DNA of 64,000 bases from Pseudobdellovibrionaceae bacterium. Its GTDB lineage: Bacteria; Bdellovibrionota; Bdellovibrionia; Bdellovibrionales; Bdellovibrionaceae. Positions within the stretch are counted from its first letter, which is position 1; each line of letters opens with the position of its first letter. Position numbers and translations under genes: made by a program. Shown one piece after another: positions 34,037-42,096 of this stretch. Where the stretch lies: the NCBI GenBank assembly GCA_039810425.1, contig JBDHWW010000011.1, forward strand, positions 1-64,000, read 5' to 3'. The notes below the pieces were generated by a model. It was not told where the DNA came from. It ran no database searches and saw only the letters and a program-made list of their open reading frames with translations.

Positions 34037-34213
34037 GCGACAGCAAAACTTTGTCCAGTGGTCCTTGACCCTTGACGCGGGACTTAGGTCTGGAGATTAG
34101 TAAATAAGCACTCTATATCTGCGCATAATCAAAAAATGCATGAAAGTTAGGCTTGTTGTTTGTTTTCCAGTACAGAGTGCTCTCTTAAAATGTCCCTTTA
34201 GATTTTTTTCGCC

Positions 34214-35581
34214 TTAGTTTTTGATGTATCTCAGGTACAAGTCATAGACCAGGCCGTATTGACCATCTTTCATCAAAACCACGGACTTATACATTGTGAC
34301 GTTACCGTGTTTGTCCGCTTCACGATAACGCTTATCAAATCTTAAGTCGATGGCCACAACACCTTTTTCTTCCAAAGTATAGAGTTCAGATGGTTGGGCA
34401 ATGCCGTCGAGATTGTCGTCCTTCCAAAGACGCAATTGCGTGAACACCTCGTCGTCTTCGCTGATGATTTTATCGTGGCCGTCGTCGTACTTAGCGAGAG
34501 CGGCGAACCCCTGAGAAGCGTACTTGCCATCCGGGCCGAGGGTCGCATCACCGAACAATTGGTCGATGCCGAGAACGAGGCCGTTTTTATTAGGCAATGC
34601 TAAGTAGTAGTTCTCAGTTTGGGCAGTCGCAAACCAGGCCGTTTGAACTGTCTTGTGATTCACGCGTTTACCGAGTAAGTCAAACATTACGCCATCCTCG
34701 GGAGCCGTCAAAGCGATTGACTGAGGAGTTGAGGTTTTGAGCTGGACCAACAAAGGGTCAATAGAGGCCACTACGACCGGGCAAGAGGGGTCCCCTTCGG
34801 TGACGGCTACGAGACTCATGGATTGCACTGCCTTTTGTTTGCCCGTGCTATCAACTTTAAAGCTCGAATTCATATCGATGAAGTGCGCCGCAGAATCCTG
34901 CAAAGGCGCGATCACGTTTTGGCCAGCACCCCAGTCGTATTTATATGGAGCCTTCACTTTGCTAGCGTCGTACATCACCACGGCATAAGTGCCCTCCGCT
35001 AATGTCTTAGATACTTTTAAAGACAAAGGCTTCAAAGAGGCGAGCTGGGCACGGATGTTGGTAACATCCGGCTCTGCATCCCAAGATTGAATCACGGTTG
35101 CGCCGCCCGAGGCGAAGTTGTCGGATTTATAAAGAACCGCAACCACTTTTTTAGATGTTGGCAAAGATGCTTGGCCCGAAGCAGTGATTGGCCCGCAAAC
35201 CGGATTTGGGGCCACAGTGATAACGGTGCCTGGGTCCACAGCAACTGAAGGAGTCTTCGGCATCACAGGGTCATTACCTATACCAGGAAAATGCATGCTT
35301 GGATCGTTGCCCACGCCTGGGAATTTCGGCATAGAGCTGTCATTGCCCGGATTCGTACCGCCAGCAACAGAGCCGTCCTCGCCCGGAGTATTTACACCGC
35401 CAGCGATTTGGCCATCGTCGCCAGGTGTATTTCCGAAAACGGTGCCGTCATCGAGAGCTTTTTCCTTTGCTACTTCGTCGATGATGAATCTTGCTTTAGT
35501 ACAGTTTTGGAATCCGAATGTTATAATAGTCAAACCAACGATGACTGCTGCGACTGAAGAATTCAGTTTTTGAATTCCCAT
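34214..35581 (-). CDS. putative lipoprotein with C-terminal FrpC-type Asp-Pro self-processing module
   Basis: Signal peptide ending FQNC (Cys27), Gly/Pro repeat linker, D275-P276 followed by a 180-aa domain containing QLFGD, GFAALAKYD and LRLWKDDNLDGIAQPSELYTLEEKGV. Confidence 0.8.
   Translation of the reverse strand: MGIQKLNSSVAAVIVGLTIITFGFQNCTKARFIIDEVAKEKALDDGTVFGNTPGDDGQIAGGVNTPGEDGSVAGGTNPGNDSSMPKFPGVGNDPSMHFPGIGNDPVMPKTPSVAVDPGTVITVAPNPVCGPITASGQASLPTSKKVVAVLYKSDNFASGGATVIQSWDAEPDVTNIRAQLASLKPLSLKVSKTLAEGTYAVVMYDASKVKAPYKYDWGAGQNVIAPLQDSAAHFIDMNSSFKVDSTGKQKAVQSMSLVAVTEGDPSCPVVVASIDPLLVQLKTSTPQSIALTAPEDGVMFDLLGKRVNHKTVQTAWFATAQTENYYLALPNKNGLVLGIDQLFGDATLGPDGKYASQGFAALAKYDDGHDKIISEDDEVFTQLRLWKDDNLDGIAQPSELYTLEEKGVVAIDLRFDKRYREADKHGNVTMYKSVVLMKDGQYGLVYDLYLRYIKN
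35250..35435 (-). repeat. intragenic peptide repeats
   Basis: NTPGDDGQIAGG / NTPGEDGSVAGG, then GNDSSMPKFPG / GNDPSMHFPG / GNDPVMPK. Confidence 0.75.
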
Positions 35582-35621
35582 GGTTTCCCCCCGGAAAAAG
35601 TTAGCTCCCGGAAAGATTTAA

Positions 35622-35637
35622 TGCAAACCAGACACCA
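35622..35637 (-). promoter_or_regulatory. candidate sigma54 promoter of the SPM lipoprotein
   Basis: Minus strand TGGTGTCTGGTTTGCA (GG-N10-GC with TTGCA), about 40 bp upstream of the ATG. Confidence 0.55.
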
Positions 35638-35806
35638 AGTGACAAAAATCGTCTTCGCAACCGTGGTGGTTTTAGGGCTTAAAGACGGTTGGTCAGGGGT
35701 ATTGGTGTCTACATCTTCATGATCAAGTGTACATAGGCACGACACACAACTTGTTGGTGAGGCCTGGGTGGGGATTTCCCCGGGGAGCGTCCCGGTTTGA
35801 GAAAAC

Positions 35807-35822: not shown

Positions 35823-35863
35823 AAATTGAGACATATTGAGCTCCGGCTCAAGGAGATTTGCTT

Positions 35864-38788: not shown

Positions 38789-38858
38789 GTCTCGTACTCT
38801 TTGGCCCCCGCACTGCTATAACCTGGTTCTGATTATCTAAAGGATTGAGGGGAATTTC

Positions 38859-39251
38859 ATGAGTAGAATCTTGTCTATTTTGTTGGCGGGGTCTGTTGTT
38901 TTTACATCCGTCGCATGCCAGAAGTCCAAGGAAGCGCCCACGGGCAACGATACAGTTCGTCCACTCTATCTTGGCGATCTCGATAAGAAATTGAATGAGA
39001 TTTACGGCAAGGACAACGAAGAGATGATGGATGTTTGTGATAAGCAATGGCGTCCAAAGATCTTAGAAATTGCCCGTGTCCTTGAGGAAAAGCGCCAGGA
39101 TATTGAAGCGCTCTCGCAGAAAAACAATGCAGAGAAAAATATTGTCGGCGTTGATTTTGGCTCATTTAAATTCATTGATGATATGGGTAAACCAACAGGA
39201 GCAGATGAGTGGACGCATATTCAGATTCGATATTCCAAGCAGGGGGTGTAG
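38859..39251 (+). CDS. hypothetical lipoprotein
   Basis: GAGGGG SD; lipobox SVAC. Confidence 0.7.
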   Translation: MSRILSILLAGSVVFTSVACQKSKEAPTGNDTVRPLYLGDLDKKLNEIYGKDNEEMMDVCDKQWRPKILEIARVLEEKRQDIEALSQKNNAEKNIVGVDFGSFKFIDDMGKPTGADEWTHIQIRYSKQGV

Positions 39252-39319: not shown

Positions 39320-40960
39320 TTACTTTATTGTCCATACTTGCTCGCTGACCTGACCTTCGCGCACCGTCAAAGGCCCTTGGGTCGTGCGTTTGCGGCGGTA
39401 GGTAAGGCGGATTTTCTGGAGCCCTTCACTCATGCGGTCATAGCTGTAATTGAGCCATTCTTGCTGGTTTAATTTACCTAATCCAGCGTCATGAAAGGCC
39501 TCTGAGCGGTCAGACGATGGATTCATAAATAAGAAACCACGAAGGTCGACAAAATAAACTTGGCCATTGTTTGCGGGTACTTCAATGACCGCCATAAATT
39601 TATCTTCACAAGTATTCTGATTTTTGCAGTACGCTGCTTTTGAGTTGAGTAAGAAGCTGAGTTGCGCACCATCACTCGTGCGAGTTTCCACTTGGACAAA
39701 GCCTTTCGGGAATGTCAGCTTGCCCGCACTGTCATCACTGATCAATTCGGCCGGAGCGCCTTTTCGGCCAAAGCGACCGTAGAAGAAGTTCAGAAGATTG
39801 TCTTTATCGGCTGGGTCAGGGGAAAGCCCCATCTGGAATCTTTTGATCGGAAGGTAGTGTTCCATATCAAACCAAAGAGGAGCAGACATGAGATATCCGG
39901 TAGGGTGTCTCATCATCAGAACCCAATAAGATCTTGGTTCGCCGTTTTCAACGGGTACGGCACTGATTTTTGAAAGAACGTCGCGCGGATTTTCTTCTTG
40001 GAGATCGCCAATTTCGCCACCATCCATAGAGATTCCATTGCCTGACGAGCCAGAAACCGCTGCAGACTCATATAAGTAACCGTCACTAATGCGGAAGATG
40101 AGGCTTCCAGAAACATTCCAAGTAGCGTCCACTTTGCCATTCGTGCGTCGACCACTTTGATAATCTTTAATAGCATCGACAATCGTTGCCGTTGGGATGA
40201 AAGAGGATCTCGCAAAGAAACGATCGCGGCGAATAGTGAGACCGCGCAAGAAATATTTGTCAGCATCTCTATGAGCAATCATCTCGCGGACATCGAAAGG
40301 TAGAGCCGTTTCACTCCATTCGTTCTTATTTGGAATTTTCACAACGAGCGGGGAGCCACTCGAGCCTGGCTGCATCAGTGTTGTTGCTTGCAACAACGTA
40401 CACATCAAATCGCAATTGATTTTGTTAAGGCTCTGTTTACCGTAAATATTATCAGCATCAAGATTTGGATCTTTCACCCAGTCATTCAAAAGAACAAAGC
40501 TGAAAACGTCGACCCAGCGTGCGCGACCAATTTCTTGCCCCTGCCACTCGATAACCCCGCGTGAATCCATCGCAAAAGGAATCGCGTGATTCACGCCCGT
40601 AACTTCCATCACTTCGACGTCATGTTCGTCGACGTAGTAACGTCCTTTGATAGTTAAATCCTGGCCTTGGTGATGGATAACTGTTCTATCGCCTTGGCTC
40701 ACGTGAGATGCCGTCACGACGAAAACCTGTTGGCCCGCTTGAACTAAGAATCCACTGCCTTTAACCGGAACTTCCTTGCCGTTGTTGGCGAGGTCTTTGT
40801 ACACAGACTCAATTGTGACAAGGCTGTCATTGGCCGCTGCAGGTTTTTCTGAACGATGGTGAACAACCGGGACATTGAGGGGAGCCGCAGCAGGAGAACT
40901 GCCGGAGTTTGCCGCGCAGGCCAGGAGCAAAACACAAGAGAGCATAGAAAGCTTTTTCAT
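39320..40960 (-). CDS. lipoprotein with trypsin-like serine protease domain
   Basis: Lipobox LLAC; GSGFLV, TASH (His), HDV (Asp), PGSSGSP (Ser); long C-terminal region of unknown function. Confidence 0.78.
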   Translation of the reverse strand: MKKLSMLSCVLLLACAANSGSSPAAAPLNVPVVHHRSEKPAAANDSLVTIESVYKDLANNGKEVPVKGSGFLVQAGQQVFVVTASHVSQGDRTVIHHQGQDLTIKGRYYVDEHDVEVMEVTGVNHAIPFAMDSRGVIEWQGQEIGRARWVDVFSFVLLNDWVKDPNLDADNIYGKQSLNKINCDLMCTLLQATTLMQPGSSGSPLVVKIPNKNEWSETALPFDVREMIAHRDADKYFLRGLTIRRDRFFARSSFIPTATIVDAIKDYQSGRRTNGKVDATWNVSGSLIFRISDGYLYESAAVSGSSGNGISMDGGEIGDLQEENPRDVLSKISAVPVENGEPRSYWVLMMRHPTGYLMSAPLWFDMEHYLPIKRFQMGLSPDPADKDNLLNFFYGRFGRKGAPAELISDDSAGKLTFPKGFVQVETRTSDGAQLSFLLNSKAAYCKNQNTCEDKFMAVIEVPANNGQVYFVDLRGFLFMNPSSDRSEAFHDAGLGKLNQQEWLNYSYDRMSEGLQKIRLTYRRKRTTQGPLTVREGQVSEQVWTIK

Positions 40961-42096
40961 CGTTGTTCTCCAATCAAGAGACTTAAATCCAAACTGTCAT
41001 TTTTATTTATGAAATATTGGCCTTCGCGAAATTGGAGGACATCAGGAAACTTCTTTCGCAAACGAGCGACAAGATTTTTAAATCTATTTTCAGAAAGCGT
41101 TGAGTCGCTCTCTTCCGGATAAATACGCTCGATCAAATCCCATTTGCCAACGGGACCACTCCAAAGAAGTTTTAAAACTTTGAACTCCAAAGAGCTCGGA
41201 GCTTCTTGGGCTTCTTGGCTGATCTGATTCATCTTTAACAAATCCGGCAGACGTTCGCGCCATGTCGGCAAAAGATGTTGCTCAAGATCTTTTGGCCACT
41301 CTTTGCCGGGATCCAGCGCGCACTCAAGCAAAGTGCGAATCGCACGTACTTCCGGAAAAGACGCCATCTTACTTTCGGTCATTAATGGCAAAGCTTCGTT
41401 GGCGCGTTTGAGTTCAATGAGTAAATGGGCTTTTTGCAGCAGGGAAGTAAAGTGATGGATACTGCCGCGCTCATTTTCCAAAAGGACGAGGCCTTCGTTT
41501 GTACACTCGAGTGCTTTTTCTAAGAGGCCCACGATCTGATATTCACGCGCCAGCATATTCAGCGCCATTCCGGCGAAGGCGTCGTCTTTCACTTCGCGTG
41601 AAAGCTGAATCACGGTCTGATATTCAGAAATGAAGTTCTTGTAAGGAGTCAGGCGGCTTTCAGCGACAACAGAGTTGTAAAACGATCGCAGAGATTTTTT
41701 AGGGCACTGAAACTTTTTATAAAGCGCGCTCGCCTGCATGGCCGTTTTGATATTGTGATCCTCGCGACCATGAACTTCCCAAGCGCGACTAATAACAAAA
41801 TATTTTTCCGCCTCAAGCACATCAAAGTAAACGCGCGAAGACGCCGTCTCGATATCTTGCAGAGTGATTTGCTTGGTTCGTAGTTTGAGGCGTAAGTGCA
41901 CGAGCTCTTGCAAGTCCTCAGGAAACTTGCGGTCCATTTCCTTGATCAATGTCTGCATCTTTTCAAGATCGCCTGACATGAACGCGGCCATGTATTGAGC
42001 ATAGAACAAAACCGGTGCTTCAAGCTCCGGATCGCGGGCCATTTGGTGAATTTCACTGAGGCTGGCCTCAGCGAGTTTGCGGAATTGTTCTACCAT
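40957..42096 (-). CDS. TPR-like helical protein with C-terminal winged-helix DNA-binding domain
   Basis: Helical repeats; C-terminal LEFKVLKLL...KWDLIERIY...NRFKNLVARLRKK (OmpR-like wHTH); ATGA overlap with the protease gene. Confidence 0.72.
   Translation of the reverse strand: MVEQFRKLAEASLSEIHQMARDPELEAPVLFYAQYMAAFMSGDLEKMQTLIKEMDRKFPEDLQELVHLRLKLRTKQITLQDIETASSRVYFDVLEAEKYFVISRAWEVHGREDHNIKTAMQASALYKKFQCPKKSLRSFYNSVVAESRLTPYKNFISEYQTVIQLSREVKDDAFAGMALNMLAREYQIVGLLEKALECTNEGLVLLENERGSIHHFTSLLQKAHLLIELKRANEALPLMTESKMASFPEVRAIRTLLECALDPGKEWPKDLEQHLLPTWRERLPDLLKMNQISQEAQEAPSSLEFKVLKLLWSGPVGKWDLIERIYPEESDSTLSENRFKNLVARLRKKFPDVLQFREGQYFINKNDSLDLSLLIGEQR

Follow-up and report, generated by a model that had tools for sequence, protein, structure and literature searches.

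The window analysed here, a stretch of 64,000 nucleotides from contig JBDHWW010000011.1 of a Pseudobdellovibrionaceae bacterium (assembly GCA_039810425.1), carries a 455-residue open reading frame (ORF) with an ATG start (34214-35581, minus strand; the window gene) whose product ends in a true self-processing module (SPM), the kind known from FrpC of Neisseria meningitidis, as confirmed by sequence, profile and structure comparison. The module and the architecture around it are real, and the protein is likely a lipoprotein. On the sequence evidence we lean slightly towards self-cleavage at the Asp-Pro bond D275-P276. A covalent tether between predator and prey, one of the functions put forward in an initial annotation made from the letters alone, is possible and is not our leading reading.

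A C-terminal FrpC-type self-processing module

The junction and the module lie at the following positions:

34754-34759, minus strand: candidate scissile bond D275-P276, equivalent to FrpC D414-P415, with the D275 codon GAC at 34757-34759
34214-34756, minus strand: SPM domain (PF26745), residues 276-455 plus the stop codon

As the initial annotation had read it, D275 is followed by P276-L-L-V and exactly 180 residues run from there to the stop codon; every motif that it quoted was found. Its alignment of the tail to the FrpC SPM is borne out at three levels. Residues 274-455 matched PDB 6SJW and 6SJX (FrpC SPM) by phmmer with an E-value of 3e-19, and a profile of 32 Bdellovibrionota domain sequences matched 6SJW from its first residue at 1.1e-38; the profile's Pro is aligned to FrpC P415, so that P276 corresponds to P415. 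For the structure model, Foldseek against the FrpC SPM gave an E-value of 8e-13 and a template-modelling score (target) of 0.78, and VIA-align gave Z 19.0 with a root-mean-square deviation (rmsd) of 2.5 Å over 162 aligned residues, model residues 276-455 lying on chain residues 1-173, while the next match reached Z 5.6. By structure, P276 aligns to chain residue 1, with D275 directly before it. The Atlas (Pfam 38.1) names the domain PF26745 'SPM' here, on all 95 homologues and on all Atlas matches; a local Pfam and NCBIfam scan, with a library lacking PF26745, returned no family for the window protein.

The residues of the FrpC cleavage port, fifth calcium site and calcium loops have been assigned (PMC7078468), and we compared the port and fifth-calcium set (W451, L475, G477, D478, G491 and D579-L582) with the window protein. 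The Trp pair is kept as W316 and W386 (FrpC W451 and W519), and the port and fifth-calcium residues are kept as W316, L342, G344, D345 (D478), G358 (G491), D447 (D579), L448, Y449 and L450. Two EF-like loops, D366-D377 and D388-E399, are also kept (FrpC 499-511 and 521-532). The first two FrpC calcium loops (D419-G424 and D462-E474) are degenerate, as the initial annotation had cautioned: loop D419-D421-D423-G424 is gone (LLVQLKTS in its place), and in loop 462-474 D462 has become L329 and E474 has become Q341. L450 was considered as a co-variation specific to the Asp-Pro clade and ruled out, as other Asp-Pro proteins have Phe there.

Architecture and predicted lipid anchor

In the model (mean predicted local distance difference test, pLDDT, 82.4), the signal helix is followed by a short helix (36-44), a disordered region (55-115) and a beta-sandwich (about 118-267), and the C-terminal domain is well predicted. 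Upstream of the junction the features are:

35587-35592, minus strand: ribosome-binding site GGGGGG, read from the sequence and conserved in orthologues
35501-35581, minus strand: signal peptide, residues 1-27, with the non-canonical lipobox FQN-C27 at its end (C27 predicted to be lipidated)
35432-35500, minus strand: conserved segment with helix, residues 28-50 (F32, D35, K39, L43, V48, F49)
35231-35431, minus strand: Gly/Pro/Asp-rich disordered linker, residues 51-117 (pLDDT below 50 for 55-115)
34781-35230, minus strand: variable beta-sandwich domain, residues 118-267 (model pLDDT 86.7)

Canonical lipoboxes follow the pattern [LVI][ASTVI][GAS]C, from which FQNC deviates; the initial annotation had placed it correctly at residues 24-27. 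A basic N-region, a hydrophobic stretch and a conserved Cys are all present. In an alignment of homologues (A1) Cys27 is kept in 95%, and many relatives carry canonical boxes (LAGC, LTGC, LSAC) in the same position. Across the genome, [FY][QN]NC after a hydrophobic stretch occurs in 20 ORFs, against 0, 0, 1 and 1 for four permuted motifs. Taken together, the conserved C27, the canonical boxes of relatives and these 20 ORFs make a lipoprotein likely. The roughly 20 proteins with this variant, often with S/G-x-x-x-F after it and, for 5 of 19, with a sigma-54-type motif, may form a lineage-specific lipoprotein class. RTX (repeats-in-toxin) nonapeptide repeats were not found in the window protein, and the genome (99.9% complete) contained no PF00353 match, no ORF with at least two RTX repeats and only below-cut-off matches to the type I secretion families TIGR01843 and TIGR01844. 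The initial annotation had read the protein as free of RTX repeats and as having no type I secretion genes nearby.

Within residues 28-50, K39 (94%), F32 (88%) and L43 (86%) are the most conserved in A1, and the segment is a possible sorting or packing signal. Mean identity is 27% in the linker and 31% in the beta-sandwich versus 68% in the SPM. C129 and C267 are conserved in 99% and 100%, and a disulphide between them probably closes the beta-sandwich. A thioester reservoir at Cys267 was considered and is disfavoured, since the co-conservation of Cys129 and the even Cys counts of most N-terminal fragments favour a disulphide. Both Cys lie wholly N-terminal to D275-P276, so that a disulphide would not hold the halves together. 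The N-terminal part of this non-RTX, predicted Sec-type lipoprotein would stay lipid-anchored, as initially proposed.

The middle domain gave no Foldseek match at E<=1e-3, no VIA match at Z>=8 and no Atlas match. The best VIA score against the type V pilin N-terminal domain (Mfa1/Mfa2/FimA), Z 5.5 with rmsd 4.8 over 111 aligned residues, is not significant and is tied with unrelated Ig-like folds; as a single query the domain matched 1 of 60 relatives only. Three homologues (P0026, P0028, P0034) are minimal forms in which the middle domain is missing and lipid anchor, linker, Asp-Pro and SPM remain. P0063 (L032) has the middle domain and the IDPL junction in common with the window protein, yet its SPM is distant, a pattern that suggests module swapping just after the Asp-Pro.

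The junction residue among relatives

Among the 95 homologues, those with names coming from Bdellovibrio, including ZAP7 and KM01, and related groups, the junction is Asp-Pro in 58, Ser-Pro in 33, Thr-Pro in one and a gap in three; C267, P276 and L277 are invariant in A1, and D275 is not. A broader set comprised 162 non-RTX proteins of at most 800 residues with a single C-terminal SPM, taken from the 95 homologues and the best 150 of 27,415 profile clusters (one further protein without a junction was skipped). Ser precedes the Pro in 96 of these, Asp in 64, Glu in one and Thr in one, and Asn, Ala and Gly in none; at the level of clusters at 70% identity the counts are 76 Ser, 13 Asp, one Glu and one Thr. 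A Cys stands 3-9 residues before the junction in 160 of the 162. Asn is common (25-30%) at the equivalent of D478, and its absence before the Pro (0 of 162) speaks against a mere hydrogen-bond or metal-ligand role for the junction residue, which would allow Asn.

A tree of 120 domains was built with the junction residue excluded (quick search, midpoint root, branch support from the Shimodaira-Hasegawa-like approximate likelihood ratio test, SH-aLRT, only). The window protein falls in a 56-row clade (SH-aLRT 100) that has Asp in 56 of 56 rows, the preceding residue varying among I, G, D, V and A, and that is nested among Ser-Pro rows. The conservation of the Asp-Pro bond, which the initial annotation had named as a check, thus held within this clade and failed family-wide (58 of 95; 64 of 162). 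A separate count of Asp in 55 of 55 rows was set aside as circular, these rows having been chosen for their Asp. The junction label needs five changes on the tree, four of them forced by strong branches and all between Ser/Thr and Asp, and the direction was likely from Ser to Asp. At 41 loci the junction Ser, present in 33, is encoded by TCN in 26 and by AGY in seven; the use of both codon families indicates that Ser itself is selected.

The genome itself carries three SPM genes: the window gene, a full-length Ser-Pro paralogue (G000 C56:796-2055, L002) and a Ser-Pro protein on C2. The full-length paralogue has a YQNC lipobox and the same sigma-54-type motif before its gene, and gives the window protein a natural control. 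The port is intact in every one of the 162 short proteins, whether Ser or Asp precedes the Pro (96 of 96 for Ser-Pro). The Ser-Pro majority shows that the fold is retained without the anhydride chemistry.

Distribution and re-use of the SPM fold

SPM matches occur in 104 of 301 genomes of the phylum, and 27,415 clusters at 50% identity came up in the profile search. An earlier search with region 265-455 had found no longer homologue among 696 candidates, a false negative given the many that the profile later recovered. The lipoprotein-SPM type is patchy at E<=1e-60, being found in 29 of 121 family genomes, in 5 of 6 genomes of the host's own genus and in 4 of 17 of genus g4.

In long, mostly RTX proteins, 17 of 22 Asp-Pro copies lie within the first 40% of the chain, and Ser-Pro also occurs at this internal, FrpC-like place (for example L053-L059). 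Later tandem copies mostly have Ala-Pro, Pro-Pro, Leu-Pro or no Pro; the fold thus serves some purpose that needs no cleavage. The port goes with the junction residue in these long proteins: Asp, Ser or Thr is found in 35 of 47 port-intact copies and in 31 of 128 port-less ones, the other 97 of 128 having Ala, Pro, Leu or another residue, with the limit that related copies are not independent; 19 of the 34 long Ser-Pro copies are port-less. Giant RTX proteins (P0096-P0183) have an early Asp-Pro or Ser-Pro SPM followed by 2-4 late tandem copies (Ala-Pro, Pro-Pro, Leu-Pro) without the FG port, in which the SPM fold is evidently re-used as a repeat domain.

Proteobacterial plasmids, too, encode small non-RTX proteins with a C-terminal Ser-Pro or Thr-Pro SPM (three inspected among 91 matching records). 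Two of them (L062:3296-4495 and L063:3437-4597) have no RTX repeats, and the L063 gene is followed by genes for a tetratricopeptide repeat (TPR) protein and for type I secretion; the plasmid SPM may replace RTX repeats as a calcium-folding tail. Another family of the phylum encodes non-RTX proteins of about 5,800-6,000 residues with one Ser-Pro SPM near the C-terminus (L023, L025, P0158).

Pilin-like operons of Bdellovibrio

The weaker family matches stand at the end of operons of four genes, which encode a large protein and two small ones with pilin-like N-termini and, last, a secreted SPM protein with the junction C-G-G-[YF]-[FW]-S-P-L. Operons of this type (Bd2723-26, Bd2209-12) were seen at G000 C2:97190-98761 with its upstream genes and at L034-L037, L042, L043 and L049-L052; in them the Ser-Pro SPM protein occupies the place of a pilus tip adhesin. 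The window gene lies outside any such operon.

Three proteins of the L049 operon (B. bacteriovorus YOA24) have 384, 325 and 162 residues and isoelectric points of 5.74, 9.15 and 9.04, and those reported for Bd2723, Bd2724 and Bd2725 are 384, 325 and 162 residues and 5.72, 9.15 and 9.04 (PMC12034629); the near-identical values mark the two operons as orthologous. The last L049 protein, the Bd2723 orthologue, matches the FrpC SPM (E 5e-11) and has a Ser-Pro junction. Bd2209, known here by description only, is listed as frpC and as 39% identical to Bd2723 over 95% (PMC12034629); the passages of that source consulted make no mention of self-processing. Both genes are strongly induced in attack phase (701 and 224, Karunker column; PMC6561027). 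Their fitness values were 0.077 and 0.083 in the full transposon sequencing screen and 1.56 and 0.84 in a mini-library re-test, in which Bd2210, needed for attachment, held at 0.0009 (PMC6561027). That Bd2209 and Bd2723 are themselves predation-essential was rejected, as their low fitness was not repeated in the mini-library.

Proposed mechanism and alternative readings

The reading that we place first, while holding it at somewhat short of even confidence, is that calcium triggers cleavage shortly after export and that water, or the predator's own envelope, takes up the anhydride. A stand-alone, putatively sigma-54-driven gene would yield a Sec-exported lipoprotein, anchored by its lipid at Cys27. 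The SPM would be unfolded in the cytoplasm and would fold on calcium in the periplasm or at the surface, as has been shown for FrpC. Folding would strain D275-P276 and the Asp side chain would attack its own carbonyl, by the chemistry shown for FrpC, releasing the 180-residue module. Because both disulphide Cys precede the bond, it is the lipid-anchored fragment that would carry the aspartic anhydride, eight residues after the disulphide-closed beta-sandwich and at the tip of a flexible, lipid-anchored stalk. An amine of the predator itself (an envelope neighbour, another copy, its own Lys or a cell-wall amine) would capture the anhydride, which would otherwise be hydrolysed.

The timing of calcium binding speaks against prey as partner. 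FrpC, secreted by the type I route, bypasses the periplasm, and its calcium binding takes place at about 150 µM (PMC7078468). A Sec lipoprotein, judging from the permeability of the outer membrane, should meet calcium at export. An SPM fusion was found already cleaved within a secretory path rich in calcium, and reaction of the anhydride with water is rapid (PMC12538545). With calcium encountered on export and an anhydride that does not last long, the amine reached would most likely be the predator's own.

Cleavage itself is favoured by the fold and register shared with FrpC, by the presence of all residues known to be needed, by the fixation of Asp in the clade, by the absence of Asn and by the Ile before D275. 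In the FrpC SPM, Asp, Gly or Pro before the Asp leaves minimal cleavage (PMC7846742), and Ile is outside these three blocking residues. The association in long proteins of the port with Asp, Ser or Thr, and of port loss with Ala, Pro, Leu or other residues, counts on the same side, as does the cleavage of all four homologues assayed in PMC12538545. Several observations weigh against cleavage. The window SPM is only about 32% identical to FrpC, compared with 60-98% for those four homologues, and two of its four EF-hand-like calcium loops are degenerate. Ser-Pro is the majority form, in 96 of 162 proteins and 76 of 91 clusters at 70% identity, and these forms keep the same port residues, so that the port does not prove cleavage; nine port-intact copies in long proteins even carry Pro-Pro, which is incapable of this cleavage. 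Gly or Asp precedes the Asp in 28 of the 58 Asp-Pro homologues. Finally, a change from Ser to Asp needs two base changes, and the invariance within each clade may therefore only reflect unfit intermediates.

One alternative is a non-cleaving role, which we consider quite conceivable without expecting it to be correct. Here the SPM would be a calcium-folded terminal domain on a lipid-anchored stalk (an adhesin tip, a metal-dependent ligand site or a folding switch), in which the Ser or Asp ahead of the Pro would act as a turn cap or as a ligand of the fifth metal and any cleavage is slow and incidental. Such a role would account for the prevalence of Ser-Pro, including the two paralogues in the same genome, for the tandem giant-RTX copies with Ala-Pro, Pro-Pro, Leu-Pro or no Pro, for the three homologues without a middle domain, and for a domain that terminates many unrelated secreted proteins and the pilin-operon proteins. 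It also fits a module (68%) far more conserved than the part that would be kept (27-31%). What it explains poorly is the narrow choice at the junction, where the 162 proteins have only Ser, Asp, one Thr and one Glu and never Asn, Ala or Gly, where both Ser codon families are used (TCN 26, AGY 7) and where the label has switched at least 4-5 times, always between Ser/Thr and Asp. Clearly dead copies, moreover, mostly lose the port, and none of the 162 short proteins has done so.

The same narrow choice can be read as two chemistries in one family. SEA, GAIN and Ntn autoproteolytic domains form an ester by an N-to-O acyl shift at the bond before a Ser. By analogy, Asp-Pro members would form the anhydride and Ser/Thr-Pro members an ester, both routes leaving an activated acyl group on the N-terminal fragment; the idea concerns the Ser-Pro relatives and overlaps with early, calcium-triggered cleavage of the window protein. 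We judge it unlikely. The restriction to Ser, Asp, Thr and Glu without Asn, the two Ser codon families, the intact port of all 96 short Ser-Pro proteins and the internal, FrpC-like Ser-Pro of RTX proteins such as L053-L059 would all fit, but the strain described in PMC7078468 acts on the bond preceding Pro and not on that preceding Ser, tandem copies without the port often have Ser-Pro as well (19 of the 34 long Ser-Pro copies) and port-intact Pro-Pro copies exist.

A covalent prey tether, in which the intact lipoprotein sits on the outer surface, its beta-sandwich binds prey or another substrate and cleavage joins the predator outer membrane to it covalently, is a shade more doubtful still. 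The layout can be likened to FrpD and FrpC1-414 joined into a single chain; FrpC1-414 is known to bind the lipoprotein FrpD and to become linked to proteins of host cells (PMC7078468, PMC5233953), and the order of anchor, linker, variable domain, Asp-Pro and SPM is that of the NeissLock probe (PMC12538545). Bdellovibrio does display a lipobox adhesin, Bd0875, on its surface (PMC11003981), and the two lost calcium loops could slow the trigger. Linkage to prey, which the initial annotation had named besides the producer's own surface, nevertheless found no support: a Sec-exported SPM would presumably meet calcium on export, and 28 of the 58 Asp-Pro homologues have Gly or Asp before the Asp. That most relatives lack the reactive Asp makes the gluing of predator to prey less likely again, and the patchy occurrence of the lipoprotein type given above indicates that this is not core predation machinery. 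A predator that invades the periplasm also passes the prey envelope by sliding, and accounts of it speak of binding followed by re-binding (PMC11003981). Weakest is the improbable notion that the SPM serves predatory Bdellovibrionota as a covalent grapple, forming an Asp-Pro anhydride or a Ser-Pro ester on lipid stalks and attack-phase pilus tips (Bd2209/Bd2723 type) and bonding prey or surfaces upon calcium folding.

Promoter region and neighbouring genes

Two features were recognized upstream of the window gene:

35622-35637, minus strand: sigma-54-type -24/-12 promoter motif TGGTGTCTGGTTTGCA, 56 nucleotides before the ATG
35706-35726, minus strand: imperfect palindrome TTGATCA-N8-TAGACA, aligning with TGTCTA..TAGACA palindromes before the orthologues L038, L039, L044 and L045

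The pattern TGG-N8-YTGCW, read by eye, precedes 8 of the 8 lipoprotein-SPM genes examined, of Asp and Ser type, and 52 of 3290 genes genome-wide, many of which encode secreted proteins. The bare motif occurs in the window at chance level (12 found, 9.1 expected), and support for the promoter is thus its positional conservation. The palindrome lies about 70-90 nucleotides further upstream and may serve a sigma-54 enhancer-binding protein as its upstream activator site. A scan for sigma-70 promoters and terminators stayed at chance level.

The window gene stands alone, divergent from a gene at 35858, with housekeeping genes on its flanks: to one side lie those for a CNNM transporter, cutA and pyrE, and to the other those for an OmpA-type lipoprotein and an S1-domain protein. 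Further sigma-54-type motifs were seen at 38802-38817 (plus strand), before a small lipoprotein gene at 38859, and at 34042-34057 (minus strand), before the CNNM gene. At 39320-42096 (minus strand) a gene for a TPR protein, whose C-terminal region resembles a DNA-binding winged helix by eye, is followed by one for a trypsin-like lipoprotein (PF13365, below cut-off).

Significance and comparison with known systems

The SPM has been called 'exclusively present' in RTX proteins (PMC7078468), and the literature reports it solely from large proteins that pathogens secrete. Our literature search, to which most subscription journals were out of reach, turned up no publication that deals with a Bdellovibrio SPM or with any non-RTX, lipoprotein or Ser-Pro form of the module. 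The domain itself is known and has a Pfam entry, and annotation pipelines will therefore flag the window protein. The window protein, its 56-member Asp-Pro clade and the 27,415 clusters reveal an SPM family that is far wider, in large part non-RTX and mostly without the Asp. They raise the question of what the SPM fold does when the anhydride cannot form, for which one genome offers a natural Asp/Ser paralogue pair, and the link to attack-phase pilin-like operons of B. bacteriovorus provides a genetic handle in a model predator. If the window protein cleaves, it would be the first candidate in our search for clip-and-link chemistry carried by a Sec lipoprotein, and the NeissLock toolkit could gain from a module that is 32% identical and lacks two calcium loops.

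The window protein shares with the SPMs of N. meningitidis FrpC/FrpA (6SJW, 6SJX; PMC7078468) and ApxIVA the fold, the Asp-Pro register, the Trp pair, the port residues, the equivalents of D478 and D579 and the last two EF-like loops, in a module of 180 residues compared with 177 in FrpC. It differs from FrpC in sequence (about 32% identity), in the C-terminal rather than internal place of the module, in its two degenerate calcium loops and in the conserved Cys pair just upstream of the junction. Unlike FrpC and ApxIVA, it is a probable Sec lipoprotein with a signal peptide and not a type I-secreted RTX protein, and its N-terminal fragment would be anchored by its own lipid and not through FrpD. 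Pfam PF26745 groups cleaving and clearly non-cleaving copies alike.

Within Bdellovibrio, the closest parallels are Bd2723 and Bd2209 (frpC; PMC12034629, PMC6561027), secreted proteins of 380-520 residues that end in an SPM and have a Cys closely preceding the junction; the Bd2723 type differs from the window protein in its Ser-Pro junction (CGGYFSPL), its lack of a lipobox and its four-gene pilin-like operon. The MIDAS (metal ion-dependent adhesion site) lipoprotein adhesin Bd0875 (PMC11003981) is likewise a lipid-anchored, metal-using Bdellovibrio protein, properties that are predicted for the window protein; the fold of Bd0875 is unrelated, its binding is reversible, and its location and role have been tested by experiment.

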